Assembly (NCBI GenBank): GCA_052389555.1
Contig: JBQTHV010000014.1
Coordinates: 1,427 to 65,426, forward strand
Length of the DNA: 64,000 bases
Reading direction: 5' to 3'
Origin: Gemmatimonadales bacterium
GTDB lineage: Bacteria; Gemmatimonadota; Gemmatimonadetes; Gemmatimonadales; GWC2-71-9
The notes beneath the pieces are model-generated. The model was not told the DNA's origin, did no database searches, and worked only from the letters and a program-made list of their open reading frames with translations. The translations under genes and the position numbers were made by a program. Of the stretch, positions 8,539-63,339 are shown one piece after another. The number at the start of each line of letters is the position of its first letter. The first letter of the stretch is position 1.

Positions 8539-9102
8539 GTGACCGCGCGGTGCGCCTGGCCCCGGACCGAGCTCGACATCGCGTATCACGATGTCGAGTG
8601 GGGCACCCCAGTCCATGACGACCGGCTGCTCTTCGAGTTCCTGACTCTGGAGGGAGCGCAGGCCGGGCTCAGCTGGTCCACCATCCTCAAGAAGCGGCCC
8701 CACTACCGGCGTGCCTTTGGGGAGTTCGATCCCTCCACCGTAGCGAGATTCACTACGCGAAGCCTAACCCGGCTCATGAACGATCCCGGCCTGGTCCGGA
8801 ACCGGCTCAAACTCGAGAGCACGGTCTCGAATGCGAGAGCATTCCTGGCTGTCCAGGGCGAGTTCGGCTCGTTCGATGCCTATCTTTGGCGGTTCGTGGA
8901 CGGGAGGCCCAGGCAGAACGCCTGGCGGTCTCTGCGCCAGATCCCGGTCCGCACCCGGGAATCTGATCAGCTCAGCAAAGACCTGCGACAGCGGGGCTTC
9001 CGATTCGTCGGTTCCACCATCTGCTATGCCTTCATGCAGGCAGTGGGCATGGTGAACGATCACGTCGTCACTTGTTTTCGGTATCGCCAGCTCTGTCCAT
9101 AG
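8539..9102 (+). CDS. tag: DNA-3-methyladenine glycosylase I
   Basis: RCAW...YHDVEWG, LEGAQAGLSWSTIL, GFRFVGSTICYAFMQAVGMVNDH..C. Confidence 0.95.
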   Translation: MTARCAWPRTELDIAYHDVEWGTPVHDDRLLFEFLTLEGAQAGLSWSTILKKRPHYRRAFGEFDPSTVARFTTRSLTRLMNDPGLVRNRLKLESTVSNARAFLAVQGEFGSFDAYLWRFVDGRPRQNAWRSLRQIPVRTRESDQLSKDLRQRGFRFVGSTICYAFMQAVGMVNDHVVTCFRYRQLCP

Positions 9103-9111
9103 CCAATAACC

Positions 9112-9498
9112 ATGTCCATTCGGGTAGTTCAGCTCGGTAGTCCTCGCGCCCCGGGCGAGGGGCTCCGGCTCGGTACCGTGCGGCGCCCGCCCCGCGGTGT
9201 TCCGAAGACGGAATACTCCCGCCGGAACTTCTATGACCTCTGGTTGCCTGAGCTCGCACCTTCCGAGGCGCTGGTCAAACTCGCCATGCGCGCCCGGGAC
9301 GAACGGGGATGGAGTCGCTTCGTATGGGGTTACCGCGCCGAGATGAAGCGACCGCCGGCGGCGCGGCTCCTGGACCTTCTGGCCGGGTTCTCCCCGCACG
9401 CCGACTTCTCGGTCGGCTGCTATTGCGAGGATCCGACGCGCTGCCATCGGTCGATTCTCCAGGAACTGCTCCGCGAGCATGGAGCTCGCCTGGCATGA
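9112..9498 (+). CDS. DUF488 family protein
   Basis: GEGLRLGTVRRPPRGV...WLPELAPS...CYCED..CHRS. Confidence 0.85.
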   Translation: MSIRVVQLGSPRAPGEGLRLGTVRRPPRGVPKTEYSRRNFYDLWLPELAPSEALVKLAMRARDERGWSRFVWGYRAEMKRPPAARLLDLLAGFSPHADFSVGCYCEDPTRCHRSILQELLREHGARLA

Positions 9499-9923
9499 CG
9501 CCGTCGGCTCCTCCCGCCATTCGGTTCGAGGCTGCCATCCCGCAGTTCACGGTGGCCGACGTGGTCCGCACCGCCGAGTACTATCGCGACGTCCTGGGTT
9601 TCCAGATTGCGGGGTACTGGGATGGAGCGCAGGTGAGCCTGAACACCGAGCCGCCGCCGGTATTCGGGATCGTCTGGAGGGACCAGATCTCGATCCACTT
9701 GAACCGTGCCGATCAACCCGACGTTCGCACCGGTCGCGCCGAAGGCGCGTATGACGTCTATCTTCGGGTGAAGGGTCTGGACGCGCTGGCTGCCGAGCTG
9801 CGCGGCCGCGGTGCCGACATTCTCGACGGCCCCGAGGACCGTATCTATGGCCAGCGAGAGCTGGTCGTACAAGACTGCAACGGATTGATCCTGGCGTTCG
9901 GTGAGGAGATCCCCCGTCCGTGA
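9495..9923 (+). CDS. VOC/glyoxalase/bleomycin-resistance family protein
   Basis: VADVVRTAEYYRDVLGF...YGQRELVVQDCNG.ILAFG; ATGA overlap. Confidence 0.85.
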   Translation: MTPSAPPAIRFEAAIPQFTVADVVRTAEYYRDVLGFQIAGYWDGAQVSLNTEPPPVFGIVWRDQISIHLNRADQPDVRTGRAEGAYDVYLRVKGLDALAAELRGRGADILDGPEDRIYGQRELVVQDCNGLILAFGEEIPRP

Positions 9924-10169: not shown

Positions 10170-10643
10170 ATGAATCGCATGCCTCGTACCGCCGCGGGTG
10201 CCCGTGCATCGTCCGGTCTGGCCGCGTTGCTCCTTCTGGTCAATGCCTGCGGAACGAGCACACCATCCCAGGAATTGCTGGTGACGGGACAGGATTACGC
10301 GTTCCAGCTGCCCGACAGCATGCCGCCCGGCCTGGTGGCCTTTCGGTTCTACAACTCCGGCAAGGTTCCGCACGAGATGGGAGTCAGCCCCCGCAAGCCT
10401 GGGGTAACTCTGGCCCAGGTTCTCGAGCTGGACCGCCGGGGTGGAAACGTCGATTCGCTCTTTGAAGGCATCGTCGGTATTCTGATCGTGAATCCGGGCG
10501 ATACGGCGGTCGGCCGGCTGCTGGTGGACCTGGAGCCGGGCCGTACCTACGTCTTCTGGTGCAACTTCCAGGACGCTCCCGACCAGCCCAGGCATATCAA
10601 CCTTGGCATGATCCGCAGCCTGGATTTCGGCCTAACCCGCTAG
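10170..10643 (+). CDS. Cupredoxin-like lipoprotein
   Basis: Lipobox-like VNAC; N.G..PHEM and YVFWC..H...GM copper-type ligands. Confidence 0.7.
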   Translation: MNRMPRTAAGARASSGLAALLLLVNACGTSTPSQELLVTGQDYAFQLPDSMPPGLVAFRFYNSGKVPHEMGVSPRKPGVTLAQVLELDRRGGNVDSLFEGIVGILIVNPGDTAVGRLLVDLEPGRTYVFWCNFQDAPDQPRHINLGMIRSLDFGLTR

Positions 10644-10645
10644 CG

Positions 10646-11113
10646 ATGGGTCGCCCGGAAGCGGTGATCTTCTGCGGTATTCAGGGCGCCGGGAAGACCA
10701 GCTTCTATCGCGATCGGTTCTTCGATACCCACGTCCGGCTGAGTCTCGACCTGCTGGGGACCCGCCGGCGCGAACAGGTGCTGGTGGCCGCATGCCTGGA
10801 CGCCAAGCAGTCGTTCGTGATCGACAACACCAACGTAACCCGCGCCGATCGGGCCCACTATGTCGAGCCGGCCCACGCGGCCGGGTTTCGGGTCGTCTGC
10901 TATTTCTTTCCTGCCGACCCGAAGGCCGCCCTCGCAAGGAACCTCAGGCGGCCTGGCAAGGCGGCGGTTCCCCCGCCGGCCGTCCTTGGCACCGCGAAGC
11001 GGCTCGAGCCTCCCTCGCTGGATGAAGGATTCGATGCGCTGTATCAGGTCGAGCTGGTCGAACCCGAAGGCTTTTCGCTCGTCGAGCTCAGCGAACCCCA
11101 ACGCTCCCTTTGA
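10646..11113 (+). CDS. P-loop kinase / AAA_33 family protein
   Basis: GIQGAGKTS Walker A, VIDNTN, P..DEGFD. Confidence 0.85.
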   Translation: MGRPEAVIFCGIQGAGKTSFYRDRFFDTHVRLSLDLLGTRRREQVLVAACLDAKQSFVIDNTNVTRADRAHYVEPAHAAGFRVVCYFFPADPKAALARNLRRPGKAAVPPPAVLGTAKRLEPPSLDEGFDALYQVELVEPEGFSLVELSEPQRSL

Positions 11114-12515
11114 CGGCCTCGAGCAGCTTGGGCGAGTCGTAGCCTACGCCGTCCTTGAACACCAGCGTCGTGTTACGGATGTCGGCCGGCCGTGCGTTCG
11201 GATCGCCCCGCACGACCGCGAGGTCCGCGATCTTGCCGGTCTCGATCGAGCCCAGGTCCTGGTCCACGCCGAGGATCCGGGCGCCGTTCAGGGTCATGAT
11301 CCGGATCGACTCCACCGGAGAGAAACCCGCCTCGACGAGCAGCTCGTGATTACGCTGATCGCCGAAACCGGGAAGCGCGCCGCCATTCCCGGTCGGGTCC
11401 ACCCCGGCGCCGAGGAGACCTCCGGCGGCCACGAAGGCGCGCTCGAACTCCATCGCCTTGCGGAAGACTTCGGGAGCAATCCCGGCGCGCGGGTTGTCGG
11501 CGATTCGCTGGCGCGAGGCGAGGTATTCTTCGCGCGTCTCGGGGGACATGGCTTCAAGCATTCGCGAATCGAGCTCCGGCGGCCGATTGGGCACGAAGAG
11601 CTCGTAGACCGCGAGCGTCGAGGTCATGGCCACTTTGTGCTTGACCATGTCTTCGATGGTCGCGCGGACGGCCGGTCCGCCGATCTCCACGCTGGCGAGG
11701 CTCTGGCCCGCAGAACCCGGACACTGATCGGGCTGCTTGCTGGAATCGTATTCGGCGTTGGCGAACAGCCCGTGCTCGAGCGCGTCGATCCCTAGTGCCA
11801 CCGCCTCACGGTATCCGACCGAGCAGAGGTGGCCGGTGAGCTTGAGACCGCGCTGGTGGGCCTCCTCGATCGCCGCCTTCATCTCATCGCGGGTGATCAG
11901 GGTGTAGAACTTGAACCAGGTGGCTCCCTCGCCGGCCCAATAGGCCACGACCCGCCGGGCGTCGTCGGGGGTACCGACCTGATACATGCCGGAGCCCGCG
12001 CCCTCCCCGCTGATGTAAGGACCGGTAACGTGCAGGCGGGGCCCGGCGACCTCGCCGGCCTCGATCGCCTTCTTGAGGTTGAGCTCCGCATAGGGCGACA
12101 TGCTGCCGGTGGTGCGGATCGTGGTGACCCCGCTGGCGAGATACAGGAGGCGTGCGGAGAAGTTCGCCTGGATGCTGCGGCGCGGAGTCGTGTAGAACGT
12201 GTGGTCGTGCAGCCCGATGATCCCGGGGACCACGGTATGGCCGGACAAATCCATAACCCGCGCGCCGGCGGGCGCCGGAGTCGAGGCGGCCGGGCCCACC
12301 CGGGCAATGCGGCCGTTCGCAATGACGATCGTTTGATCCTCACGGGCCGGCGCACCGGTGCCATCGATCACCCGCACGTGGGTCAGGGCCACGACCGGCT
12401 CGGGGACCGCCACCATGGTTCGGGGTCCGGTGCCAAGCCGGTCGAACGACTGGGCCCGCAGGCTCGGGGCGATGCCGAGGAGCAGGAGCGGAACGGCTCG
12501 CAGGGCGTACGGCAT
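11088..12515 (-). CDS. Secreted amidohydrolase family protein
   Basis: PGIIGLHDH, GVTTIR, GSIETGKIADL; signal peptide. Confidence 0.9.
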   Translation of the reverse strand: MPYALRAVPLLLLGIAPSLRAQSFDRLGTGPRTMVAVPEPVVALTHVRVIDGTGAPAREDQTIVIANGRIARVGPAASTPAPAGARVMDLSGHTVVPGIIGLHDHTFYTTPRRSIQANFSARLLYLASGVTTIRTTGSMSPYAELNLKKAIEAGEVAGPRLHVTGPYISGEGAGSGMYQVGTPDDARRVVAYWAGEGATWFKFYTLITRDEMKAAIEEAHQRGLKLTGHLCSVGYREAVALGIDALEHGLFANAEYDSSKQPDQCPGSAGQSLASVEIGGPAVRATIEDMVKHKVAMTSTLAVYELFVPNRPPELDSRMLEAMSPETREEYLASRQRIADNPRAGIAPEVFRKAMEFERAFVAAGGLLGAGVDPTGNGGALPGFGDQRNHELLVEAGFSPVESIRIMTLNGARILGVDQDLGSIETGKIADLAVVRGDPNARPADIRNTTLVFKDGVGYDSPKLLEAVKGSVGVR

Positions 12516-12536
12516 GGGGATTCTCCAAACAGCGGG

Positions 12537-14663
12537 TTAGGGTGATACCGTCACGACGGTCTTCATGCCGGCTTCCAGGTGCTCCGCAATGTGGCAATGC
12601 AGCATCCAGCGGCCCGGGTTGGTGAGCTCGACCAGGAGCTCGATCACGCTGCCCACCGGGACCAGCACCGTGTCCTTCCACATGAGATTCTCGGTCCGCC
12701 GGCCGTTCACGGCAAGGACCAGGAATCGTTGCCCGTGCAGATGAATCGGGTGCGCCATCGGGTGGAGGGTATGGCGGTCGTTCACCAGCCGCAAGCGGAC
12801 CAGATCGCCCACCCGGAATCGCCACCCGATCTCCTCGTTCTCCCGCCCGGTGGCAGTGTCGCGGAGCACCCACCCTACCTGGTCGGTGGTGGCGAGCCAG
12901 TCCATCATCGGCATGGTCCCACTCCACTCCACCGGGTTCACGAACAGGGTATCGAATCGGAGGAGCTGGACCAGCGGAAAGGGGAGTCCCCGGTCCCGAA
13001 GCGACAGCACGACCGTGGCGTCCGGAGCCCGGTCGTAGTGCGGCCGGTAACGCTCGATGTCCCGGCGGACGTCGTCGTGGGATCGCAGCCGGCGGAAATC
13101 TCCGGGCGGGCCGGCGGCCGGGTTTGGCTCGACCTCGACCGTCCCGAGGCTATCGACCTCCGGGAAGAAGCGGCCGAGCGTGTGGTCGATCGCCTGCACG
13201 TGATTGACCAGCGCAGTCCGACCGGGCCGCCCGAACTCGACGTCTACGATATACCGCTCGGCGGGCGCGAGGACCACGCTCTCCACCCACTCCTCCCGTT
13301 GCGTCCGCCCCAAGTCGGCGCCCACCAGCTTCATCCGGGTGCCGGGAACCGAAACATTGAAGGTGCGGGTATTGGCCGCGTTGGTCAGGTAGAAGCGCAC
13401 CACCTCGCCCTGGCGGACCCGGAGCCGGTATGACGAGGCCGGCTCACCGTTGATGAGGAAGAGGTTGCCGAAGCGGCCCATCAGGGCGTGGGTGGCGCGC
13501 TCGCTCCCGTGCGGGAACGCATCTCCCTGGGCATCGAGCAGCAGGTCGTCCAGCACGAGGACTTCTTCCCGGTCTGCCGGTCCATAACCCGCGCCCGCGG
13601 TTTCCCGCACCAGCAGGTTGCCGTACAGGCCGAGGTCCTGCTGGACATCCTCCCGATGGTGCGGGTGATACCAGTAGATGCCGGGATCGGGGAAATGCAC
13701 CTCGTACCGGAAGGAGTCGCCCGGCGCGACCGGCGGCTGGGTCACGTGGGGCACCCCGTCCGACCGGTTGTCGAGCCGGATGCCGTGCCAGTGGATGCCG
13801 GTGGGCCAGGGGGTCCGATTCACGAAGCGCACCCGGATGGTCGCGCCCTGCGTGAGCTCGAGCAGGGGACCCGGCTGCTGCCCGTTGAAGCCGTACTGGA
13901 ACAGGACCCTGGTTCCTAACACGCGCTTCACCGGGCCGGCTTCGAGCCGCAGGGAGTCGCCATCCTGGAGCCGGAGCAGGGAACGCCCCCGGACCGGCGG
14001 AGCCAGGGCGGCCGCACCGGAATCCGGAACCAGCGGCGCAGCGTTGGGGCCCAACCCCGCCAGGGCCGGCATGTACATCGTGGAGGCCTGGGGATGCAGG
14101 GGCGGAATGGGCCAGCCGTTCGCATGGTGGATCGGGTGCTCCGGGGCCGGTACGGCGGCCTGGACCAGATGGGGCGCGCCGAGCCGCATGCTCGGGGAGA
14201 ACCCGCGCAGGACGTACCGTCCCGAGGGGCGCGTCACCTGCGGGTTAGGTTCAACCGAGACAAATACCACGAAGCGGTTGAGGGCGATCTCTCCCACCGG
14301 CACGGCGCCCCGGCTGCCGGGAGGCAGCTCGCCCAGCCGGATCATGGGTGCGAGCGCCGGCGGCGCGGCCCACACCACGAACGTCGTGTAGGGCCCCAGG
14401 GAGCCCGGGTTAGGCAGGGAATCGGCGGAGACCAGCAGGGTGTACCGGTGGACCCCCTCCCGGGTCACCGCCGCGGTGAACGGCGAGGGCGCCGGCCGGA
14501 GCTCGGCGGTGCCGCTGAACCGCCGGAGCTCGGGGGTGCCGATGAGCTCGATGGTGTAGAGGTCGGGGGCGGGCGACTGGGCACACAAAAGGTAAGAGGT
14601 AAGAGGTAAGAGGTGAGAGAGAAACGATCTCCGACTCTTCCTCGTCGACCTCTCACCTCTCAC
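12537..14663 (-). CDS. Multicopper oxidase (start uncertain)
   Basis: All four Cu motifs present: HWHG, YWYHPH, HPIHLHG, HCHIAEHLEAGM. Confidence 0.9.
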   Translation of the reverse strand: MRGERSTRKSRRSFLSHLLPLTSYLLCAQSPAPDLYTIELIGTPELRRFSGTAELRPAPSPFTAAVTREGVHRYTLLVSADSLPNPGSLGPYTTFVVWAAPPALAPMIRLGELPPGSRGAVPVGEIALNRFVVFVSVEPNPQVTRPSGRYVLRGFSPSMRLGAPHLVQAAVPAPEHPIHHANGWPIPPLHPQASTMYMPALAGLGPNAAPLVPDSGAAALAPPVRGRSLLRLQDGDSLRLEAGPVKRVLGTRVLFQYGFNGQQPGPLLELTQGATIRVRFVNRTPWPTGIHWHGIRLDNRSDGVPHVTQPPVAPGDSFRYEVHFPDPGIYWYHPHHREDVQQDLGLYGNLLVRETAGAGYGPADREEVLVLDDLLLDAQGDAFPHGSERATHALMGRFGNLFLINGEPASSYRLRVRQGEVVRFYLTNAANTRTFNVSVPGTRMKLVGADLGRTQREEWVESVVLAPAERYIVDVEFGRPGRTALVNHVQAIDHTLGRFFPEVDSLGTVEVEPNPAAGPPGDFRRLRSHDDVRRDIERYRPHYDRAPDATVVLSLRDRGLPFPLVQLLRFDTLFVNPVEWSGTMPMMDWLATTDQVGWVLRDTATGRENEEIGWRFRVGDLVRLRLVNDRHTLHPMAHPIHLHGQRFLVLAVNGRRTENLMWKDTVLVPVGSVIELLVELTNPGRWMLHCHIAEHLEAGMKTVVTVSP

Positions 14664-14705
14664 TTCTCACCTCTCACCTCTTACCTCTCACCGCTCACCT
14701 CTTAC
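14589..14705. repeat. Inverted pair of heptamer arrays (AGGTAAG)n / (CTCTCAC)n
   Basis: About 4 units at 14589-14620 complementary to about 8 units at 14649-14705. Confidence 0.85.
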
Positions 14706-17700
14706 GGCTTCACCCCCGCCTGGGTTCGCTCGGGCCCCAGCTTGCTCCAGGCCTGGGTACTCAGCGCACGCTCTCGCGGATAGATCTCCTTGAGCGTCCC
14801 GCCTTCGTAGAGCCGGCCGTTCTTCATCACGTATCGGAGCTGCCCGACGTTCCGCAGATCGGCCAGCGGGTCGGCGTCCACCACCAGCAGGTCGGCCAGC
14901 TTGCCGGCCTCGATGCTGCCGATATCGGTGCTCAAACCGATTGCCTCGGCGCCCAGAATTGTTGCAGCGCGCAGCACGTCATGCGGTTTCGCCCCGCCCG
15001 ATCCCATGGCCCAGAGCTCCCAGAGGTATCCCACCCCTTGGATCTGCCCATGGCTTCCCACCGCTACCCGGGCGGTGTCCTCCAGCATGCGCTTCACGAA
15101 CTGGGCGTGCTTGGGGAACACCTGCTCCTCGTCCAGCGCCCAGAACCCGCGCCGGCGGGTTCGCAGGTCGATGCTCTCCTCCGGAACGAACCGGCGCAGC
15201 TTGGGATCGTCGTGCACCTCCTCGTGCTGGTAGTAGTAGTTCTCCGCGAAGGGGCCCCCGTAGGAGACGATCAGGGTCGGGCTGTTGGTCGTCTGGCTCG
15301 CCTTGAAGACCTTCACCACGTCCTCGTAGATCGGTGCAACCGGCAGCGCATGCTCGACGCCCGAGTAGCCATCGATCACGTGGGTCAGGTTGAGCCGGAA
15401 GTCGAGGCCGCCCTCGGTGGTCGGCATGAGGCCCAGGTGCCGGGCCGCCTGGATGATCCACTGCCGTTGCTGCCGGTTGCCGCTCATGTACATCTTGAGC
15501 GTCTTGGTGTCGTAGTAGTGGCTGTAGCGTTTGAGCACGCTCACTGCATGGGCCGAGTCGCGGATGTTCTCACTCAGGAACACGCCGGGCCCGGTCGAGT
15601 AGATGCGAGGGCCGACCATCTCGCCGATGGCGACGCGGTCCTGATAGCTCAGCACGTCGGTGGAGCCGGTTTGCGGGTCGCGGGTCGTGGTAACGCCAAA
15701 GGCCAGCGTGGCGAGATACTGCCACGCCTGCCGGGGATGGATTTCCGGCACCAGCCACTGGGGGTGATAGTGCGTATCGATGAAGCCCGGGAGAATGGTC
15801 TTGCCGGAGACATCGATGATGCGCGCGCCGGCCGGCACGGTGACCGAATCGCGCGGCCCCACCCCGACGATGCGCTCGTCGGTGATGACGACATCGGCAT
15901 TCTCGATGACCTGGTGGCCTTTCATCGAAACCACCCGCGCCCCGCGCAGCACTACGCTGCCCCCCGGGACGTCCCGCGGCATCCGCACCACGACCCGTTG
16001 CTCGGCGGGTTTGTAGGTGGTCGTGTCGGCCCTCAGGCTATCGAGGCCGGCCCGCACCGAGTCCGCATTATTGCGCATGGCCAGGGCCCGCGCCCGGATC
16101 CGGTCCGCAGCTTGAATCAGGGAATCGGCCCGGGCCTGGACCGAATCGGCGAGCAGGCGGGCCAGCCGGGCGCGGAGCGAGTCGGGAACCGCCGCAGCGG
16201 CGCGGGTCAGGCTGTCGACCGTCCGCCGGGTCGTGCGCAGCGTGTCCAAGAGGTGCCTAACCCGCAACGCCCGGCCCACCGTGGCGCGCTGCTCGCGCTG
16301 GGTGCTGTCTTCGATCGCCCTCACCCGGGACAGATCGTAGGTCAGGAACGCATTCCCGATGGCCCAGTGAACCCGGTTGCCGTCGGCGCTCCACGAGGGG
16401 AACTCTCCCCCGATGTCGGTCAGCTGGCGCACCGTGACCGGCGCAGCCTGCGGAGCCGCGACCGAGATGACCGGGACCGGCCCCCCGACCTCCGGAATGT
16501 CGACCACATAGAGGTGATTGCCGACCTGCGCCACCGCGCGGCCGCCCCGGGGCGAAATCATGACGAGATCCGCCGGCGGCGGAGCGCCCGCCTCGGCGGG
16601 TTGGGCGCCGGATTGCTCGTCGGCAAAGACCGGGAACACCCGCCGGGGCATCACTTGCCAGGGCTCCGGATGGGGGTTCGCTCCGATCGGCGGCGGCGCG
16701 CCGCGCACCTGGAGGTGCTGCTTGACGTCGGTACCATCCCACCGGAACGAGACCAGTCCTTCCGAGAAACTGTAGGCGTAAATGCGTTCCGGCTGGTCCC
16801 CCCGGAAATGGGCCATGTCCCGGCTGCCGGTGGGAGCGATCAGGGTGACCGCGCCGCCGGCGGCGGGGACCCACACGAACTCGCCACCCAGAGGGCCAAA
16901 GAAGACATCGGGCGCGCGCTTGAGATCGCGGGCCGCACCGCGAGTAGCCACGAGGCGCCGACCGTCGGGCGACCACGCGAGGTTGTAATACAGCGCCGCG
17001 TCGCGGGTTAACTGCTGCGGTGGTCCGTTGCCGCCGGCCCGCGCGCGCATGATGTGCCCGCCGGCGGAATCGTCCCAGGTCACCCACGCCACCCAGAGAC
17101 CGTCCGGCGACCAAACCGGATGGTACTCACCGGCGTCCGCGCTGGACACGCGCTTGGTGGTGCCGGTTGCCAGATCGCGGACCCAGAGCCGGTCGAACGC
17201 GGTGAAGACGACTCGCTTCCCGTCGGGCGATACGACCGGGTGCCGGATTTGCCTGGCAGTGACCAGCGCGGCGGTATCCACCCGGTAGCGGAACTTCACT
17301 TCCGGGCCGATGTCCACCGACACGGGGGCCTCGAACGGGATCTTCGTCGCGGCGCCGCTGTCGGTCGGAACTCTCCAGATCTCGCCTCCATAGGAGATCA
17401 CGAGCGCCCTGGAGTCGGGCGTGAAGCTGTAGCCCGGCAGCACGTCGAGAGTCGCGCGCGACTCCATGTCGTCCCGCTGGATCGGGTACGCCAGCCAGCG
17501 CTCTTCCCCGGTGGCCAGCTCGCGGATCCGAAGCCCGGTCTCGGCGTTGTAGCGGGTTCCGTAGACCAGCCACTTTCCGTCGGGAGAGATGGCGGGCCGG
17601 AAGCCGGATCCGTAGCGCGTCGTCATGAGCGCCGAGGTGCCCCGCTGCCGGTCATACACGTACAGCTGGTACTGCGGGAACCCGGCGTTGTACTGCCATT

Positions 17701-18367
17701 CGCCGAAGCGCCCCGAGAACCAGATGTAGCGCCCGTCCGGCGTGGGCGCCGGACCGGCGTTCCGGAAGGTCGCGGGGTCCCGGATGACCGGGAGCGGGCT
17801 CCGGCGCTTCACGTTATAGAGGAGGAGCTTGGCCGCGCCTCCTAACCCGCCGGAACGGGCCACGACGATATGCTCGCCGTCGGGCATCCATTCGGGCGAC
17901 TGGTACGCGCTGGTGTTGCCCTGGGTGACCTGCAGGGTATCGGTGTAGTCGAGCCGCAGGACCCAGACGTTGTCTCCGCCGCTTCGGTCGGAGACGAACA
18001 CGACGGACTGGCCGTCCGGACTGAAGCGCGGCTGCGCATCGTACCCCATGCCTTCGGTGATCCGGGTCGCCTTCCCCCCGGCGATCGGCATCGTGTAGAG
18101 ATCGCCCAGGAGATCGAACACGATCGTCTTGCCGTCCGGGCTCACGTCCACCGACATCCAGGTTCCCTTGGTCGCCGTGAAGGTCGCCTTGCGCGCCGCC
18201 GCGAGCGGAAGCGGCCGAGCCGGCGGCTGGGCCCCGGGCGCTCCCGCCGGCGGCTGAGCAGCGAGCGTGCCCGCTCCGACGGTCATCGCCAGGAGCAGGA
18301 CCAGACTGACGACTGAAGACTGACGACTGATAGCTGATAGCTGATCGCTGATAGCTCTCCGTCTCAC
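14702..18367 (-). CDS. TolB-like (PD40) beta-propeller + amidohydrolase fusion, paralog 2
   Basis: GTG 18367 overlaps the upstream TGA; SPDG repeats, PGFIDTHYH, GSHGQ, GSIEAGKLADL. Confidence 0.9.
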   Translation of the reverse strand: MRRRAISDQLSAISRQSSVVSLVLLLAMTVGAGTLAAQPPAGAPGAQPPARPLPLAAARKATFTATKGTWMSVDVSPDGKTIVFDLLGDLYTMPIAGGKATRITEGMGYDAQPRFSPDGQSVVFVSDRSGGDNVWVLRLDYTDTLQVTQGNTSAYQSPEWMPDGEHIVVARSGGLGGAAKLLLYNVKRRSPLPVIRDPATFRNAGPAPTPDGRYIWFSGRFGEWQYNAGFPQYQLYVYDRQRGTSALMTTRYGSGFRPAISPDGKWLVYGTRYNAETGLRIRELATGEERWLAYPIQRDDMESRATLDVLPGYSFTPDSRALVISYGGEIWRVPTDSGAATKIPFEAPVSVDIGPEVKFRYRVDTAALVTARQIRHPVVSPDGKRVVFTAFDRLWVRDLATGTTKRVSSADAGEYHPVWSPDGLWVAWVTWDDSAGGHIMRARAGGNGPPQQLTRDAALYYNLAWSPDGRRLVATRGAARDLKRAPDVFFGPLGGEFVWVPAAGGAVTLIAPTGSRDMAHFRGDQPERIYAYSFSEGLVSFRWDGTDVKQHLQVRGAPPPIGANPHPEPWQVMPRRVFPVFADEQSGAQPAEAGAPPPADLVMISPRGGRAVAQVGNHLYVVDIPEVGGPVPVISVAAPQAAPVTVRQLTDIGGEFPSWSADGNRVHWAIGNAFLTYDLSRVRAIEDSTQREQRATVGRALRVRHLLDTLRTTRRTVDSLTRAAAAVPDSLRARLARLLADSVQARADSLIQAADRIRARALAMRNNADSVRAGLDSLRADTTTYKPAEQRVVVRMPRDVPGGSVVLRGARVVSMKGHQVIENADVVITDERIVGVGPRDSVTVPAGARIIDVSGKTILPGFIDTHYHPQWLVPEIHPRQAWQYLATLAFGVTTTRDPQTGSTDVLSYQDRVAIGEMVGPRIYSTGPGVFLSENIRDSAHAVSVLKRYSHYYDTKTLKMYMSGNRQQRQWIIQAARHLGLMPTTEGGLDFRLNLTHVIDGYSGVEHALPVAPIYEDVVKVFKASQTTNSPTLIVSYGGPFAENYYYQHEEVHDDPKLRRFVPEESIDLRTRRRGFWALDEEQVFPKHAQFVKRMLEDTARVAVGSHGQIQGVGYLWELWAMGSGGAKPHDVLRAATILGAEAIGLSTDIGSIEAGKLADLLVVDADPLADLRNVGQLRYVMKNGRLYEGGTLKEIYPRERALSTQAWSKLGPERTQAGVKP
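18303..18356. repeat. Heptamer array (GACTGAC / GCTGATA units) within signal-peptide coding region
   Basis: gactgacgactgaagactgacgactgatagctgatagctgatcgctgatagct. Confidence 0.8.
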
Positions 18368-23580: not shown

Positions 23581-23584
23581 GTGT

Positions 23585-23666
23585 GGCTATTGGCTAATAG
23601 CTATTGGCTATTGGACACGAGCCCCGCCGGGTTAGGGCAGTTTCCAATAGCCAATAGCCAATAGCC
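23585..23666. terminator. Heptamer hairpin (GCTATTG)n/(CAATAGC)n between convergent genes
   Basis: Arms 23585-23615 and 23643-23666; the loop contains CGGGTTAGG. Terminator role is inferred. Confidence 0.6.
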
Positions 23667-36002: not shown

Positions 36003-36091
36003 TACCTTCCAACCTTCCGCCGCCCTCATGTCTCTAACCCGTCGAGACCCGGCGCCGCTCCCGGAGGACGCCCCTGCCAGCCCAAGCCGCC

Positions 36092-42950: not shown

Positions 42951-42960
42951 CCTCCGGGTT

Positions 42961-45426: not shown

Positions 45427-45613
45427 GTGGTCTCACCGCCCTCCATACCCCAGTATCCGGCCTGCGGCCCCATTCGGCAAGGAGACGTCGCGCCCCGCTC
45501 CGAAGTGACAATCTTGGCCCGCCGTCCTGCCGTCCTGCCGTCCTGCGGTTTCTATGCCTCCGCTCGCATTCTTGAGGTTATCCCATTCCAAGCCGGTCCA
45601 GCATCTAGTTGTC

Positions 45614-53139: not shown

Positions 53140-53702
53140 ACTGGATCGAACGCCGCAAGCGTCGCGCCCGCCGGCGCCGCCTCATCCGCGGGTTAGGAGC
53201 CGGCGGTCTGCTCCTGGTCTCCGCATTGCTGGCCGGTACCGCGCTGCCGGCCGTCCGGATCCGGCGAGGCACCCTGACCCTCGCTCGATCACCGGAGGTC
53301 GTCTGGTGGGTGCTGACCGATCTGGATGGGATGCCCGCCTGGCGCTCTGATCTCCGCGCGGTGGAGCGGCTGCCCGACCGGGAGGGCCGGCTCGCCTGGA
53401 AAGAGGTCGGGCGAAGCGGGAGTCGAGTTGTCGAGCTTATCGAGGCGGAGCCGCTTCGGCGCCTGGTGATGGGGCGAACCGAAGGGGCCCGCACGATCCT
53501 CCGCACGATCGAGCTGGCCGAGCCGGAAGGGCTGAGCGGAACCGTGGTGACCGTGATCGAAGAAGAAAGGGTCGGGAACCCGATCGCTCGCGTGTTAACC
53601 CGGCTGCCCATTCCGCGCGATCGGACCCCGCGCTTGCTGCGCGACCTCGCCGACCGGTTCGGGGACCGCCCGCCCGTCGCGGTGGGGCGCGGTGCGGGTT
53701 AA
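53136..53702 (+). CDS. SRPBCC/polyketide cyclase family protein
   Basis: PEVVW..LTD....PAWRSDL..VE; ATGA overlap. Confidence 0.75.
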   Translation: MNWIERRKRRARRRRLIRGLGAGGLLLVSALLAGTALPAVRIRRGTLTLARSPEVVWWVLTDLDGMPAWRSDLRAVERLPDREGRLAWKEVGRSGSRVVELIEAEPLRRLVMGRTEGARTILRTIELAEPEGLSGTVVTVIEEERVGNPIARVLTRLPIPRDRTPRLLRDLADRFGDRPPVAVGRGAG

Positions 53703-54133
53703 TCCTGCTCGTTGATCCGGCTGCGCATCCGCTTGACCTCGCTCCGCCGGCGCTTGGCCTCGAGCCGCCGGCGCCGCTCGGCGGGGGGAACCCTGGTGCG
53801 GCGGCGCGGCTTGGGTGGAACGACTGCTCGCGCCAGAAGCTTGACCAATCGCGCGGTCACGGCTTCCCGGTTCCGGAGCTGGCTTCGGCTCCCTGCTTCG
53901 GTAAGACGCAGCCACCCTTCGCGGTCGAGCCGGGAACCGAGTCGCTCCCGGAGCAGGGCTCGCGCTGCGGCGTTCGGGGCGCTACTGGTTTCGAGATTCC
54001 ACCAGAGCTCGACCCGGGTCGAAGAAGTGTTGACGTGCTGGCCGCCGGGACCGCCCGCCCGCGTCGCGCGATACACGAGCTCCGCGCGAGGAATCCGGAG
54101 CGGGCCGGCCGGGAGCACCTCGCGTTGGGGCAT
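53699..54133 (-). CDS. arfB: Alternative ribosome rescue peptidyl-tRNA hydrolase
   Basis: RAGGPGGQHVN, RSQLRNRE, basic C-terminal tail. Confidence 0.93.
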   Translation of the reverse strand: MPQREVLPAGPLRIPRAELVYRATRAGGPGGQHVNTSSTRVELWWNLETSSAPNAAARALLRERLGSRLDREGWLRLTEAGSRSQLRNREAVTARLVKLLARAVVPPKPRRRTRVPPAERRRRLEAKRRRSEVKRMRSRINEQD

Positions 54134-54770: not shown

Positions 54771-55405
54771 TGCGGGGATGTCTCACGCTCCCGTTCCGGA
54801 TCCTGTTCCTGGTCCTCCTCGCGGCCGGATTGGTGTTGGCGTGGACTTATCGCCACGAGCTGCGCCGGCGTATCCACGCCTGGACGGCGGACCCCGAAAC
54901 GGAAGCCGAAGGCCGGGCGGATCCCGGATTGGTGCCGGGAGCGCGCGCGCGGCTTGCCGAGGTCGGCCGGGCTCGGACCGACAGCATCGTGCTCACGGCG
55001 GCCCAAGTGGCGAGCCTGCTGGCCGCCCAAGCAGAGCAGCGCGTGCCGGGGGCGGTGGATTCGATCACGGTGCGACTGCAATCCGATGAGGTCGAAATCC
55101 GCGGCCGGATCGCGACGCGCCTGGTGCGGACCCCGCTGGGACCGGCGGGTCAGGTGCTGCGCGAGCGCGAATGGCTCGAGGCCGGCGGCCCGGTGGCCTT
55201 CCGGCGCGCCGGCCTGGCCGAGTGGCGGGTGGAGCGGGTTAGGGTGCGCGGCCTCCCGATCCCCCGCACCGTGCTGGCGGGCTGGTGGCGGCAGTTCGCG
55301 GGAGCGACCGACGGGATCGTTGCGGTGCCGCTGCCCGCGTCGGTCGGCGGATTGCGGGTGACCCCGGAGGGCCTGGTGCTCTACGGCACCCGCGCCTCCC
55401 GCTAG
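54767..55405 (+). CDS. Hypothetical membrane-anchored protein
   Basis: N-terminal TM; overlaps thpR within an operon. Confidence 0.7.
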   Translation: MMRGCLTLPFRILFLVLLAAGLVLAWTYRHELRRRIHAWTADPETEAEGRADPGLVPGARARLAEVGRARTDSIVLTAAQVASLLAAQAEQRVPGAVDSITVRLQSDEVEIRGRIATRLVRTPLGPAGQVLREREWLEAGGPVAFRRAGLAEWRVERVRVRGLPIPRTVLAGWWRQFAGATDGIVAVPLPASVGGLRVTPEGLVLYGTRASR

Positions 55406-55417: not shown

Positions 55418-56782
55418 ATGGCGAATCGGGTCCTGGTCATCGACGACGAAGAGGGCATTCGGCAGGCCCTGCGCCAGGTGCTCGAATACGAGGGCTGGGA
55501 AGTCCGCACCGCGGGCTCGGGGGGCGAGGGGATCACCGGCTACCCCGAGTTCCGACCCCAGGTGGTGCTGCTCGACGTGAAGATGGCGGGCCTCGACGGC
55601 CTGGATACCCTAACCCGCCTGCGCGAGCTGGACCCGCCGGCTACCGTGGTCATGATCTCCGGCCACGGCACCATCGCCACGGCGGTCCAGGCGACCCGGC
55701 GGGGGGCGTTCGATTTTCTGGAGAAGCCGCTCGATGCGGACAAGCTGCTGGTCACGCTGCGCAATGCGCTCCAGCATTCCGCCCTGGCGAATCAAAATCG
55801 CGAGCTCCGGCGGGTGCTCGACCGCCGGTACCTCATGGTGGGGCAGAGTGTCGCGCTGGAGGAGGTGCGGTCGCTGATCGCGCGGGTGGGACCCACCAAC
55901 GCGCGAGTGTTCATCCTGGGCGACAACGGAACCGGCAAGGAGCTGGTGGCCCGGGCGCTGCACGAGAACTCGCCGCGGCGGGAGCATCCCTTTGTCGAGG
56001 TGAATTGCGCGGCGATCCCCTCGGAGCTCATCGAGAGCGAGCTCTTCGGCCACATGAAAGGCAGCTTCACGGGCGCCTTTGCGGACCGGGCCGGCAAGTT
56101 CGAGCTCGCCGACGGCGGGACGCTGTTTCTGGACGAAGTCGGCGACATGTCCCTCTCGGCGCAGGCCAAGGTCCTCCGGGTACTCCAGGAGGGAGTGGTG
56201 ACCCGGATCGGGGCGGCACGATCGGTCGAGGTCGATGTGCGCGTGTTAGCCGCCACCAACAAGAATCTCGAGAAGGAAATCGCGGCGGGACGGTTCCGGG
56301 AGGATCTCTGGCATCGGCTCAACGTGATCCCGATCCGGGTTCCGCCGCTACGCGAGCGGCTCGAAGATCTGCCCCTGCTGGTGGAACACTTTATCGCCGT
56401 GCTGAGCGGTGAGGCCGGGGTCATCCCCAAGACCTTTCATCCCGACGCGCTCAGGGCGCTCGCCCGGCGGGACTGGCCGGGCAACGTGCGCGAGCTTCGC
56501 AACGGGGTGGAACGCCTGCTGATCCTGGCCCCGGGCCGCAGCGTGACCGCGACCGACGTCGCTCGGGTCCTCCCGTTGCCCGAGGGAGCGGAGCCGGTGC
56601 CCGAGCCGCAGCGCCCGGTCACTCTGGAAAGCTTTCGGCAGGAGACCGAACGGGCCTTCATCCTGGCTAAACTGCAGGAGCTCAACTGGAACATCGCCGA
56701 GACCGCGCGGGAGCTCTCGATTCCGCGCTCCAACCTGTACAAGAAGATCCAGCAGTATGGCCTGAGCCGGGAGATGCGGTGA
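55418..56782 (+). CDS. Sigma-54-type response regulator (NtrX/NtrC-like)
   Basis: Receiver domain, GDNGTGKE, ESELFGH.KGSFTGA, LFLDE, WPGNVREL, Fis-type HTH. Confidence 0.95.
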   Translation: MANRVLVIDDEEGIRQALRQVLEYEGWEVRTAGSGGEGITGYPEFRPQVVLLDVKMAGLDGLDTLTRLRELDPPATVVMISGHGTIATAVQATRRGAFDFLEKPLDADKLLVTLRNALQHSALANQNRELRRVLDRRYLMVGQSVALEEVRSLIARVGPTNARVFILGDNGTGKELVARALHENSPRREHPFVEVNCAAIPSELIESELFGHMKGSFTGAFADRAGKFELADGGTLFLDEVGDMSLSAQAKVLRVLQEGVVTRIGAARSVEVDVRVLAATNKNLEKEIAAGRFREDLWHRLNVIPIRVPPLRERLEDLPLLVEHFIAVLSGEAGVIPKTFHPDALRALARRDWPGNVRELRNGVERLLILAPGRSVTATDVARVLPLPEGAEPVPEPQRPVTLESFRQETERAFILAKLQELNWNIAETARELSIPRSNLYKKIQQYGLSREMR

Positions 56783-57225
56783 CTCCGCCGGCCTCCGGCT
56801 CGCCGCCACCGCGCGACTGGGACAAGGAGCTGGCTGAGATCGACCGGCTGATGGCCAAGCAGCCGGCCGCTCCGGCGCCGGTCCCAACCAGCCGCCCGAC
56901 CGCCCAACCGCCCAGCCGCCCCACCACCGGCCGCGCCGCGCTCGGTGCCTGGCTGCGCGTGCTCCTGGGGGCAGCCCTCGGCGTCGCGATGACCCAGTGG
57001 CCCTATGCGAGCGATTGCGGGTTAGGCCTCGTGCTCTATCTCGGCGCTGCGAGCGGAGTGGTGCTCGCCGGACTCTGGGCCATGGTGGCGAGCTGGAAGC
57101 GCCGGATGCCGCTCGCCCATGTGGTTGCCCTGGCCGTTCTGCTCTGGGGCGCTATCCTGGTCGGTCAGGTGATCCTGGATCGGACCCTGTACGTGAAGGT
57201 GCCCAAGACCTGGACCTGTTCATGA
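56779..57225 (+). CDS. Hypothetical membrane protein
   Basis: RDWDKELAEID N-terminus, three TM segments; overlaps both neighbours. Confidence 0.7.
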   Translation: MTPPASGSPPPRDWDKELAEIDRLMAKQPAAPAPVPTSRPTAQPPSRPTTGRAALGAWLRVLLGAALGVAMTQWPYASDCGLGLVLYLGAASGVVLAGLWAMVASWKRRMPLAHVVALAVLLWGAILVGQVILDRTLYVKVPKTWTCS

Positions 57226-60995: not shown

Positions 60996-61033
60996 CTCCT
61001 GACCCCTGACCCCCCTTCACGCCGGGGTTCTCC

Positions 61034-62044
61034 ATGGGTGATCCTGTTCGCATCGGACTGATCGGCGCCGGCACCATCGTGCAGGTCGCTCACCTCCCCC
61101 TGCTCAAGAAGCTCAAAGGGGTGGAAGTCGCCGCGATCTGCGATGTGGATCTGCCCAAGGCGCGGGCCCTCGCGGAGCGGTTTCAAATCAAGGATGTCTT
61201 CGACGACATCGAAGATCTCCTTGCGCATGAGCCGGTCGAGGCCATTCTGGTTGCCACGCCGAATCATCTGCACGAGCCTCACGTGATGGCCGGCCTGAGC
61301 GCCGGCTGCCATGTCCTGGTGGAGAAGCCCGGATCGCTGACGGCGGCCGGCGAACAGCGCATTGGCCGCCTCGCCGAGCGCAAAGGCCTGGTCGTCATGG
61401 TCGGGATGACCCACCGGTATCGTCCCGATGCGCAGGCGGTCCGGAGCTTCATTCAGAACGGCGAATTGGGGGAGATCGACTCGGTCCGGGCGAGCTGGCA
61501 CGTTTCGCGTCCGGCTCGCAGTCCGCTCGGCTGGCGGACCCGAAAAGACGAGGCCGGGGGAGGGGCGATGCTCGACCTGGGGCTCACGATGGTCGATCTG
61601 TGCCTCTGGCTCACCGGGAATCCTACTCCGGTCCGGGTGAGCGCCAACCTAACCCGCCCGAAGGGGGAGCGTGGGGTGGAGCACTCGGGAAGCGCGTTCA
61701 TCGTGTGTGAAGAGGGCATTGCGATCCTGGTGGACGTCACCTGGCGCCACATCGGGGAACGGGAGCGGTTTGGCCTGGGAGTACGGGGGAGCAAGGGGAC
61801 GGCCGGCATCAACCCGCTGCACGTGTGGAAGGAGCTCACCGGGGTTCCCCATGACGTGTCTCCAACCGGTACGTTGTCCCGGGAAAGCGCCTTCACGGCT
61901 TCGTTCCGTGCCGAATGGGCCCACTTTCTCACCGCGATCGCGGGCAAGGCGCAAGTGCCCGCGCTGGCCGAGCACATCACCCTGCTCAAAGTGATCGACG
62001 CGATCTACCGCTCCGCGGCGGACGGGCGGGAGGTGGCAGTGTGA
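61034..62044 (+). CDS. Gfo/Idh/MocA oxidoreductase
   Basis: GLIGAG, ATPNHLH, HVLVEKP, AGGGAMLDLG. Confidence 0.92.
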   Translation: MGDPVRIGLIGAGTIVQVAHLPLLKKLKGVEVAAICDVDLPKARALAERFQIKDVFDDIEDLLAHEPVEAILVATPNHLHEPHVMAGLSAGCHVLVEKPGSLTAAGEQRIGRLAERKGLVVMVGMTHRYRPDAQAVRSFIQNGELGEIDSVRASWHVSRPARSPLGWRTRKDEAGGGAMLDLGLTMVDLCLWLTGNPTPVRVSANLTRPKGERGVEHSGSAFIVCEEGIAILVDVTWRHIGERERFGLGVRGSKGTAGINPLHVWKELTGVPHDVSPTGTLSRESAFTASFRAEWAHFLTAIAGKAQVPALAEHITLLKVIDAIYRSAADGREVAV

Positions 62045-63339
62045 AGGTTCCAGCCGTCAGTCGTCAGTCGTCAGCCGTCAGTTTCCTTCTGGTGTTGGGC
62101 CTGGTTAGCGGCGTCACGGCCCAGCCGTCCAGCCGTTCAGCCGCCCAGCCGCCCAGCCGCCGAGCCGCCGAGCCGCCGAGCGCCGAGCGTCCAGCGCCGA
62201 GCCTCGAGCCTGGTAGCGAGCTCACCGTCACCCTCATCACTTACGAGACCGGCGCGAGGATCTACGAGCGATACGGGCACAACGCCATCTGGATTCACGA
62301 CGCCAGCACCGGCACCGACGACCATTACGATTACGGCCGCTTCAGCTTCGAGCAGCCTCACTTCGTGCTGCGATTCGTCGAGGGGCGGATGTGGTACGCG
62401 ATGGGTTACGAATCCAATGTCGCCGGGATGGTGGACCTCTACCTCCGCCAGGGGCGCCGGATCTGGATGCAGGAGCTCAACATCCCGCCCGCGGAGCGGC
62501 TCAAGCTCCGCGAGTTCCTGAACTGGAACTATCGGCCCGAGAATCGCAACTACGCCTACGACTATTACCGCGACAACTGCTCGACCAGGATCCGGGACGC
62601 CCTCGATCGGGCGCTGGGCGGTGCGATTCGCCGGTACGGCGAGGCGCCGTCGGGCTGGACCTGGCGGGACGAGACCCGCCGGCTCAACCAGCATAACCCG
62701 GCGCTCTACACGGCACTCCTGGTGATGCTGGGCGAGCCGGTCGATGCCGAGATGTCGCGCTGGGAGCAGATGTTCCTGCCGGCCCGGCTCCGCGAGGCGC
62801 TCAGTCAGGCGCGGGTAAGACTGCCCGACGGCACCGAGCAGCCCGCGGTACTGGCCGAGCGGCTGGTGGCGGAAGGCGGGCAGTGGCCGGTCCCGGAGCG
62901 GCCGGCTACCTGGCTGCCGTGGTATCTCGTGGCCGGGTTAGGGCTCGGTGGGCTGATGGCGCTGGTGGCCCGGACCCGCGCGTTCGTGCCGGTGGCGGTT
63001 CTCTGGAGCTGGCTGGTCGGCTTGCTGGGGGCGTTCATGCTGTGGGTGTGGGTGTTCAGCTATCACGTGGCGGGCTATCGCAACGAGAATCTCCTGCTGT
63101 TCAACCTGTTCGTGCTGGCGCTCGCGATCGTGCTGCCCGCCGCGGCGCGGGGGCGGCCCTGGGCGGTGGGGCCGGCCCGCTGGCTCGCCGCCGCGGTGGC
63201 GGGGCTCGGCGTGTTAGGACTCTTCGTCACGGCGCTGCCGGCGTTCCCGCAGCACAACCTCGAGGTGTTCGCGCTGGTGCTTCCCGTACACCTGGCCGTG
63301 GGGCTGGGCGTGCGACAGCGAGTAGGAGTTAGCGAGTAG
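62041..63339 (+). CDS. DUF4105 (Lnb-like) membrane protein
   Basis: YGHNAIW, Y.YDYYRDNCSTRIRD, FLP..L; C-terminal TM helices; GTGA overlap. Confidence 0.85.
   Translation: MKVPAVSRQSSAVSFLLVLGLVSGVTAQPSSRSAAQPPSRRAAEPPSAERPAPSLEPGSELTVTLITYETGARIYERYGHNAIWIHDASTGTDDHYDYGRFSFEQPHFVLRFVEGRMWYAMGYESNVAGMVDLYLRQGRRIWMQELNIPPAERLKLREFLNWNYRPENRNYAYDYYRDNCSTRIRDALDRALGGAIRRYGEAPSGWTWRDETRRLNQHNPALYTALLVMLGEPVDAEMSRWEQMFLPARLREALSQARVRLPDGTEQPAVLAERLVAEGGQWPVPERPATWLPWYLVAGLGLGGLMALVARTRAFVPVAVLWSWLVGLLGAFMLWVWVFSYHVAGYRNENLLLFNLFVLALAIVLPAAARGRPWAVGPARWLAAAVAGLGVLGLFVTALPAFPQHNLEVFALVLPVHLAVGLGVRQRVGVSE
62050..62210 (+). repeat. Heptamer (GTCAGYC) and octamer (GCCGAGCC/GYCCAGCC) tracts in signal and linker region
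   Basis: 62050-62082 and 62119-62210. Confidence 0.8.

Follow-up and report, generated by a model that had tools for sequence, protein, structure and literature searches.

To our knowledge, sequence-specific DNA uptake is known experimentally from two proteobacterial families only. The words that confer it, DNA uptake sequences (DUS) and uptake signal sequences (USS), together "DUES", are described in the available portions of the literature as short and non-palindromic, occurring about once per kb on both strands, in several frames within genes and also in spacers, at a cost in amino acids and codons, at less conserved residues, in dialects, and in company with type IV pilus/ComEA/ComEC genes (bioRxiv 10.1101/2025.10.24.684340; PMC3630211; PMC2817400; PMC3458573). 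Here we report on a 10-mer, CCTAACCCGC, with the 7-mer TAACCCG/CGGGTTA inside it, that is hyper-abundant in a stretch of 64,000 bases (the window; contig C14, positions 1427-65426) and throughout the assembly to which it belongs. This assembly, G000, is a metagenome-assembled genome (MAG) of an uncultured, soil-type lineage of the Gemmatimonadales, with 3,215,157 bases in 202 contigs, a G+C content (GC) of 66.9% and a completeness of 93.5%.

The 7-mer is present in the window in 61 copies, 36 on the plus and 25 on the minus strand, against 3.50 ± 2.12 in dinucleotide-preserving shuffles of the window, the largest of which reached 8 (0 of 100 reach 61). Six of the copies lie within the attC sites of an integron (starts 329, 1206, 2090, 2879, 3845, and 5477). 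The 9-mer CCTAACCCG was counted 33 times, 29 of them outside attC, where shuffles of the window give 0.47 ± 0.66. An earlier note on this stretch, made from the sequence alone, had listed 54 positions of the 7-mer outside attC, all of which are exact, and had overlooked one more (29534, minus strand); its estimate of about 29 9-mers outside attC agrees with our count, and the GC of about 68% that it assumed is near the 0.64-0.71 measured along the window.

Across the whole assembly there are 2,843 copies of the 7-mer (1,402 and 1,441 by strand), which excludes confinement to this contig, together with 1,607 copies of the 9-mer and 1,092 of the 10-mer. These are the most frequent 9-mer and 10-mer of G000, the next unrelated 9-mer having 736 copies. 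The motif has the shape C[C>A]TAAC[C>a]CG[C>G], and its logo, built from 2,838 instances, is informative outside the 7-mer only at -2, -1, and +8. Compared with a third-order Markov expectation, the 1,092 copies of the consensus 10-mer stand against 7.4 expected (observed/expected 147), and three single-base variants are tolerated: 391 copies (91-fold) have A at position 2, 155 (71-fold) have A at position 7, and 443 (52-fold) have G at position 10. Changes at positions 3, 4, 5, 6, 8, and 9 lie mostly around background (observed/expected 0.3-4.4), giving a sharp specificity profile. The degenerate word C[CAG]TAAC[CA]CG[CG] amounts to 2,478 copies, or 0.77 per kb and about 0.8% of the genome. 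Flank information is close to zero past 10 bp, so the motif is not a piece of a longer repeat, and with orthologue alignments ungapped at the sites a longer repeat or mobile element was ruled out. The features of REP, MITE, or NTS-type repeats (a hairpin unit, a mostly intergenic position, and spread by insertion) were not found for the motif, about 83% of whose copies lie inside open reading frame (ORF) calls, with 3 of 200 at alignment gaps. An assembly or binning artefact was likewise ruled out, as density stays between 0.54 and 1.36 per kb (5th-95th percentile) in the 93 contigs that are 10 kb or longer.

Concerning the coding regions, ORFs were called with an ad hoc heuristic combining ORFs and codon scores (2,422 ORFs covering 83% of the genome; some calls in the window are in the wrong frame). 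Coding DNA contains 0.878 motif copies per kb and intergenic DNA 0.829. All frames that do not create a stop are used, on both strands; relative to genes, the 7-mer has 1,010 sense and 1,336 antisense copies, and the 9-mer 604 and 674, respectively. When synonymous codons were shuffled within each ORF in 40 rounds, the enrichment persisted under this codon- and amino-acid-preserving null: the 7-mer was observed 2,350 times in ORFs against 222 ± 13 in shuffles (10.6-fold), the 9-mer 1,277 times against 20.5 ± 4.3 (62-fold), and the 10-mer 871 times against 8.2 ± 2.6 (106-fold). A protein-level motif is ruled out by the multiple frames, the use of both strands and the survival of this shuffle. 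The motif holds 38.6% of all TTA codons of G000, 25.3% of CTA, and 9.9% of AGG, compared with 0.63% of all codons, and 17.7% of the amino-acid-compatible sites carry the 7-mer. The signal had been proposed in the earlier note to act at the DNA level, as a non-palindromic and unskewed word that occurs about once per kb and bends codon choice; this view is backed by the frames, the codon shuffle, the share of TTA and CTA codons, the skew of permuted words given below, and two amidohydrolase paralogues of the window that serve as an internal control, with P-G-Y and L-T-R codons (Table 1) as the note had read them.

The origin of the copies was studied against the congener G017 (400-kb sample), with 188 orthologue pairs of at least 55% amino-acid identity each and an overall nucleotide identity of 72.5%. 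Substitution gave rise to the copies, since alignment gaps coincide with only 3 of 200 G000 sites. While 39 of the 200 G000 sites (19.5%) are identical in G017, 39 of the 76 G017 sites (51%) are identical in G000, compared with 17-18% for 7-mers of the same composition, which means that sites are strongly retained in G000 and that this genome has also gained many more. The amino acid differs from that of G017 in 35.1% of the codons under G000-specific sites vs. 26.9% elsewhere. For the comM copy at 46873..46882, G000 reads GCGCGGGTTAGGC and both G013 and G001 read GCGCGGGCGCGGC; compared with those two, the site amounts to a change from Ala to Val plus one from CGG to AGG, a rare codon.

Along the genome, replication strands were deduced from GC skew only, in a fragmented assembly. 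On this basis the fraction of copies on the C-rich strand is 0.567, vs. 0.539 ± 0.065 for 419 same-composition permutations; the skew is thus what composition predicts, with no Chi- or KOPS-like polarity. Motif copies are spaced more evenly than chance: gaps below 200 bp number 266 and gaps above 3 kb number 118, compared with 472 ± 18 and 152 ± 8, respectively, when positions are redrawn within 10-kb bins. Density climbs threefold with local GC: over 541 windows of 5 kb it goes from 0.47 to 1.39 per kb, with a Spearman coefficient of 0.60. With gene GC, compatible sites increase 1.4-fold and their occupancy rises from 7.3 to 27.4%, so the trend is not a matter of site availability. The longest motif-free stretches are low in GC. 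On contig C98, positions 1-35000 have a lowered GC (about 0.64-0.65) and hold 13 copies in 35 kb vs. 27 in the next 24 kb; dnaA-dnaN is located at C98:24064-26790, and GC skew switches sign around 5-10 kb of the same contig.

The enrichment is confined to one genus, within which it is graded and bears dialects, with G000 as the extreme. The pattern CMTAACCCGS was counted in a sample of 151 genomes from the family (78 genera), with the reversed pattern as a rough null. G000 has 2,013 matches vs. 47 for this control, and none of the 147 genomes from the other 77 genera exceeds its own control; in other families of the order the 10-mer has 0-26 copies. Among the 26 genomes of the genus set, copies of CCTAACCCGC and of its CA variant CATAACCCGC are 1,092 and 391 in G000, 219 and 270 in G018, 198 and 256 in G017, 179 and 86 in G021, 159 and 129 in G008, 123 and 76 in G005, 99 and 98 in G041, 49 and 118 in G019, and 28 and 92 in G014, with G001, G003, G006, G007, and G020 near control for both words. 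The CC:CA ratio consequently runs from 2.8:1 to 1:3.3 within the genus. G015 has 0.08 7-mers per kb (340-kb sample), and no other hyper-abundant word was found in the samples of 400 kb of G017 and 340 kb of G015. A tree of the single gene ComM, covering the 15 of 26 genus genomes with a full-length comM match and omitting the other 11, joins G000 with G017 and G018 (support 99/97) and then with G005 and G016 (94/97), which places the most enriched genomes together. Across the genus, ComM is 72-79% identical to that of G000, reaching 85% over a fragment from G041, while the best named relatives of the protein, Gemmatimonadales MAGs, reach 67%; G000 is an isolated and extreme lineage. In several congeners comM is split between contigs near residue 372 (347 and 415 in two others), as seen in G022, G004, and G002 and also in G041 and G020. 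The split could be an inserted element or an assembly break; comM is a known insertion hotspot.

The motif also has a direct counterpart in the integron. The six attC sites of the window begin at the 5' end with C[C/A]TAACCCGC (one with TATAACCCGC) and carry GTTAGG-type R' boxes at the other end, and in every attC examined in the genus the core TAACCCGC corresponds to the R'' box (..TAAC) extended by the four bases that follow. In G003, which has no genome-wide enrichment, 18 of 18 plus-strand attC sites in three cassette-array contigs start with NNTAACCCGC, showing that this attC type exists independently of the enrichment. In G000, an attC signature beyond the 8-mer accompanies 18 of the 2,843 copies, and the other approximately 2,825 fail attC anatomy. 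Within the cassettes at the left end of the window (about 8 kb) the motif occurs in attC sites only, never in cassette ORFs. This chromosomal cassette array (window 1-5600 plus C14:1-1426) extends past the beginning of the contig and has at least seven plus-strand attC sites at intervals of 0.7-1.6 kb. On C14 itself no intI was found; three other contigs, C112, C92, and C73, each carry a terminal intI gene above the TIGR02249 cut-off, and C41 carries a terminal fragment. In G060, from another genus of the family, CMTAACCCGS has 36 forward vs. 5 reverse matches, and this strand bias hints that an array of TAACCCGC-type attC sites also exists beyond the genus. The copies in attC had been set apart from the rest in the earlier note, which lacked the identity of the motif itself with the attC 5' end as well as the restriction to one genus and its dialects. 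The specificity of the recognising protein may have been recruited from, or have co-evolved with, the integron system.

With respect to competence, ComEC is encoded in G000 and in all four congeners searched for it (G017, G018, G001, and G014); the remaining genes were searched in G000. There, a ComEA-like protein with two HHH_3 domains is encoded at C182:3850-4497, directly upstream of pilB, pilT, and pilC (C182:3850-8799 in all), an arrangement that ties a DNA-binding protein to pilus motor genes. DprA, a PilQ-type secretin and ComM (in the window) are also present, and, by gene presence, the set for natural transformation is complete, in line with the competence that the note had seen as compatible with comM. 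Known uptake-sequence receptors are a ComP-type minor pilin in Neisseria and, by prediction, ComN in Pasteurellaceae. Nine prepilin signals were detected in G000, including two GspH-family minor pilins; minor pilins are encoded at C108:2405-3019, C143:15554-16024, and C3:254-676. An orphan GspH-like pilin was considered as the receptor by presence and absence and rejected, as it is present in 26 of 26 genus genomes and does not track the enrichment; the C3 pilin was rejected as well: it belongs to a multi-copy family, and G017, G018, and G005, all of them enriched, lack close orthologues of it.

Regarding DNA modification, Vsr and C5 methylase (PF00145) were not found in G000, G017, G018, G001, and G014, and PF02384 and PF02086 methylases (type I/IIG and Dam) were not found in G000, absences that are provisional in an assembly of this completeness. 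The only DNA methylase found in G000 is an N6_N4 methylase (PF01555) fused to an Mrr_cat/NA-iREase1 nuclease-like domain, which occurs in 1 of the 26 genus genomes, namely G000. It is located at C172:59755-61392 (locus L112 913-2553, minus strand), near a contig end with few motif copies. As a cause of the enrichment the fusion was rejected, since the enriched congeners do not have it, and it stays only a lead for the extreme density of G000. The link to a methyltransferase, one of the readings offered in the earlier note, is weakened by these results, while its uptake sequence is still the best fit. None of the outcomes that the note had named as refuting its proposal was observed.

We give even chances to the 10-mer acting as an uptake signal of the DUS/USS kind that recombination drive has spread; the drive itself, a receptor and a bias in uptake are inferred. 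A surface component of the type IV pilus/ComEA/ComEC machine would prefer fragments bearing the word, and cells would import and recombine such fragments, released by kin, at a higher rate. Any point mutation giving rise to the word would then be copied through the population, and any that destroys it would be replaced, a molecular drive by which the word would build up to about 1 per kb on both strands and in every frame without a stop codon. A second copy near a first would add little under this mechanism, hence the even spacing. A drive that acts on fragments and is coupled to recombination accounts for the even spacing and the GC-linked occupancy better than a pure bias of mutation or repair would, although neither feature proves it; a rise of occupancy with GC would be expected if both track recombination.

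Several observations weigh against an uptake signal. The best ComP_DUS match among the pilins of G000 is sub-threshold (18.9 bits vs. a cut-off of 27.3). Competence genes are nearly universal and ComEC is also present in the little-enriched G001 and G014, and, with the orphan pilin found throughout the genus, nothing detected explains the density of G000, which is about five times that of its apparently closest relative, G041. The core of the motif is the attC 5' end, which the uptake model does not predict. In the available part of a recent account, DUS and USS are reported as terminator hairpins, which are nearly absent in G000, and the DUS literature is said there to report a bias towards genome-maintenance genes, while the dnaA-dnaN region of G000 is motif-poor, a single anecdotal case (bioRxiv 10.1101/2025.10.24.684340). 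Adjacent pairs within 60 bp are 53 direct vs. 24 inverted among the 2,843 copies, so that terminator-type hairpin pairs are rare, unlike the habit of DUS and USS. Finally, the two longest motif-free stretches, both on C98, are not imported islands; their genes include sufB, dnaN, dnaA, and one resembling RNase D. The notion that motif-poor DNA is recently acquired is only in part supported, by the cassette ORFs without the motif and the low GC of motif-free stretches; with sufB, dnaN, and dnaA in the two longest, we do not put it forward.

Among other explanations, the word could be the site of a chromosomal protein, whether nucleoid-organising or acting in repair or self-recognition, with each copy kept by selection for that function. 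The sharp, protein-like specificity profile, the spacing more even than chance, the conservation above background and the equal density in genes and spacers would all suit such a site. We consider it unlikely nonetheless, because copy numbers in congeners with a comparable set of genes are 5- to 50-fold lower or do not exceed control, steep differences that are hard to reconcile with an essential architectural role, and because the dnaA/dnaN origin region is motif-poor. Nor do we know of a nucleoid or segregation site that is 10 bp long and non-palindromic, occurs in about 2,500 copies and is indifferent to its orientation. A polar signal for recombination or segregation of the Chi or KOPS kind is highly improbable: the reverse complement of the word is G-rich and 57% of the copies put it on the G-rich strand, but the skew equals that of the 419 permutations of the same composition (0.539 ± 0.065), and gene orientation is near even for the 9-mer (604 to 674).

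A sequence-specific bias of repair or modification, very-short-patch-like and tied to a methyltransferase, has been proposed for CCWGG in Escherichia coli or HIP1 in cyanobacteria. For the present word it would agree with the methylase-Mrr fusion being found in G000 alone of 26 genomes, which is also the extreme genome, and with an occupancy that tracks GC, as conversion bias might. It is improbable in view of the absence of Vsr and C5 from the five genus genomes searched and of PF02384 and PF02086 from G000 (93.5% complete), and G017, G018, G005, G008, and G021 are still about 10-fold enriched although the fusion methylase is absent from them; a pure version of this bias also does not predict the deficit of close copies. 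The probability is just as slim that the word is a half-site of the IntI R box, its spread tied to integron biology through docking or secondary recombination sites. TAACCCGC does start 6 of 6 attC sites in the window and 18 of 18 in G003, three intI genes of G000 exceed the TIGR02249 cut-off, and the CC and CA variants are found in attC as in the genome. Yet the attC signature accompanies only 18 of the 2,843 copies, the rest lying in conserved genes where they arose by substitution (3 of 200 at gaps), and recombination sites at about 2,300 coding positions would be harmful; moreover, no integrase activity known to us makes its own site by point substitution. A further suggestion joins the integron to the uptake signal and, in our estimate, carries a low probability: the word would represent a third, independently evolved uptake-sequence system, the first outside the Proteobacteria, with its specificity recruited from the attC R'' box, such that every gene cassette of the genus would be natively import-tagged and the tag would since have been driven through the chromosome in one clade. 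If that were true, transformation and cassette capture would be mechanistically coupled via one word of 8-10 bp.

The copies of the motif in the window are given in Table 1. As for the neighbouring features, no known RNA family was found in the window at the gathering threshold. The two paralogues mentioned above are in tandem at 14702-21759 on the minus strand, each consisting of a large PD40 beta-propeller plus amidohydrolase, and are 52-59% identical along their lengths; additional amidohydrolase genes are located at 11088-12515 and 26714-28447. Short tandem heptamer arrays of 3-8 copies are also present, many of them as two inverted arrays around an intergenic spacer (for instance at 14590-14705, 18303-18356, 23584-23666, 39495-39543, 43787-43876, 58759-58859, and 63317-63368). 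Their words are dispersed genome-wide, with 361 copies on 54 contigs for ATAGCCAATAGC, 232 on 52 for CTCACCTCTCAC, and 295 on 71 for CCGAGCGCCGAG, and the arrays are reminiscent of the STRR repeats of cyanobacteria.

Table 1. Motif copies and the comM gene in the window, in window positions.
Feature	Position	Strand
CCTAACCCGC, attC 5' (R'' box) end	327..336	+
TATAACCCGC, attC 5' end	1204..1213	+
CATAACCCGC, attC 5' end	2088..2097	+
CCTAACCCGC, attC 5' end	2877..2886	+
CCTAACCCGC, attC 5' end	3843..3852	+
CCTAACCCGC, attC 5' end	5475..5484	+
CCTAACCCGG, first copy beyond the attC sites	8763..8772	+
CCTAACCCGC	10631..10640	+
CGTAACCCGC	10834..10843	+
CATAACCCGC	12252..12261	+
CCTAACCCGC	12532..12541	-
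CATAACCCGC, multicopper oxidase gene	13583..13592	+
CCTAACCCGC	14240..14249	-
CCTAACCCGG	14405..14414	-
CCTAACCCGC	16256..16265	+
GTTAACCCGC, L-T-R = TTA ACC CGC; paralogue CTC ACC CGG	17003..17012	-
CCTAACCCGC	17841..17850	+
CATAACCCGC	19672..19681	+
ATTAACCCGC, gene M-R-V-N-A; paralogue M-R-A-R-A	20455..20464	+
CATAACCCGG, P-G-Y = CCG GGT TAT; paralogue CCG GGC TAC	20841..20850	+
CCTAACCCGG	23627..23636	-
ATTAACCCGG	23767..23776	-
CATAACCCGT	25151..25160	+
CATAACCCGG	26546..26555	-
GCTAACCCGC	28206..28215	+
CCTAACCCGC, penicillin amidase gene	29205..29214	+
CATAACCCGC, copy overlooked by the earlier note	29533..29542	-
GTTAACCCGC	30240..30249	-
CCTAACCCGC	30593..30602	-
CCTAACCCGC	31384..31393	-
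CCTAACCCGG	31599..31608	-
ATTAACCCGG	32198..32207	+
CCTAACCCGC	33253..33262	-
CATAACCCGC	34524..34533	+
CCTAACCCGG	35520..35529	+
TCTAACCCGT	36033..36042	+
CCTAACCCGG	37132..37141	+
CCTAACCCGC	38847..38856	+
CATAACCCGC	39189..39198	-
CATAACCCGC	39447..39456	+
CCTAACCCGG	39569..39578	-
CCTAACCCGC	41640..41649	+
GGTAACCCGC	42635..42644	+
CATAACCCGG	42954..42963	-
CGTAACCCGC	44946..44955	-
comM (ChlI + Mg_chelatase + Mg_chelatase_C), competence-associated helicase gene, two motif copies inside	45554..47146	+
CCTAACCCGC, in comM; at this position in 0/14 congeners compared	46135..46144	+
CCTAACCCGC, in comM; motif in 0/14 congeners compared	46873..46882	-
CTTAACCCGC	50023..50032	+
GGTAACCCGG	50568..50577	-
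CCTAACCCGC	50583..50592	-
CCTAACCCGC	51380..51389	+
CCTAACCCGC	51778..51787	+
CCTAACCCGC	53188..53197	-
GTTAACCCGG	53594..53603	+
ATTAACCCGC	53694..53703	-
CCTAACCCGC	55234..55243	-
CCTAACCCGC, sigma-54 response regulator gene	55609..55618	+
CCTAACCCGC, aldehyde dehydrogenase gene	57017..57026	-
CCTAACCCGC	61648..61657	+
CATAACCCGG	62692..62701	+
CCTAACCCGG	62933..62942	-

The literature on DUS and USS, in its available portions, treats Neisseriaceae and Pasteurellaceae only (PMC3630211; PMC2817400; PMC3458573; bioRxiv 10.1101/2025.10.24.684340). In titles and abstracts, no work was found linking Gemmatimonadetes or Gemmatimonadota to uptake sequences or natural transformation; none of the matches listed connects attC with DNA uptake sequences, and none is relevant for integron, Gemmatimonadetes, and attC combined. 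A full-text search for the 7-mer returned no bacterial genomic motif among the matches listed. If the word is indeed an uptake signal, it would show that sequence-specific uptake evolves repeatedly, and the genus would offer species that range naturally from background to about 0.8 copies per kb, in which the start and intensification of such a drive could be studied, as well as a sequence tag to trace gene flow in soil and sediment metagenomes. A connection of transformation with the traffic of integron cassettes would also become testable. Should it be the site of a chromosomal protein instead, 39% of TTA codons together with the amino-acid changes make for an unusually strong DNA-level constraint on protein evolution.

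Chi and KOPS are strongly co-oriented with replication; the Gemmatimonadales word is likewise a short over-represented oligomer, G-rich on one strand, but its skew is only compositional. HIP1 is palindromic and the target of dedicated methylases. This word (GCGATCGC) is described, in the part of the source available, as hyper-abundant, conserved, and quasi-evenly spaced in the genes of cyanobacteria (bioRxiv 10.64898/2026.06.24.733823). The Gemmatimonadales word is similarly hyper-abundant, conserved, and evenly spaced, but it is no palindrome, and the enriched congeners yielded no methylase to match it. The NTS/dRS3 repeats of Neisseria, with the Ssn single-strand nucleases, are presented in the accessible part of the report as hairpins of about 30 nt that modulate natural transformation, are expanded in some species, lie in genes in 2% of cases and cluster at particular genes (PMC11893778), whereas the word described here has 10 nt and no hairpin, lies in ORF calls in about 83% of copies and is evenly spread. 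Integron attC sites are imperfect palindromes of 60-120 bp at cassette ends (R''/L''...L'/R'); the 8-mer TAACCCGC is shared with them, but the approximately 2,800 genomic copies have random flanks and lie in ordinary genes. Concerning the DUS of Neisseriaceae (10-12-mer) and the USS of Pasteurellaceae (9-mer core), the Gemmatimonadales 10-mer is unrelated to them in sequence and belongs to another phylum (Gemmatimonadota); it also differs in having almost no inverted pairs or terminator hairpins, very steep density differences within one genus, a motif-poor dnaA-dnaN and a core that is the attC 5' end. It is nevertheless alike in size, density, strand symmetry, coding cost, less conserved positions, dialects, and the competence genes with which it co-occurs.

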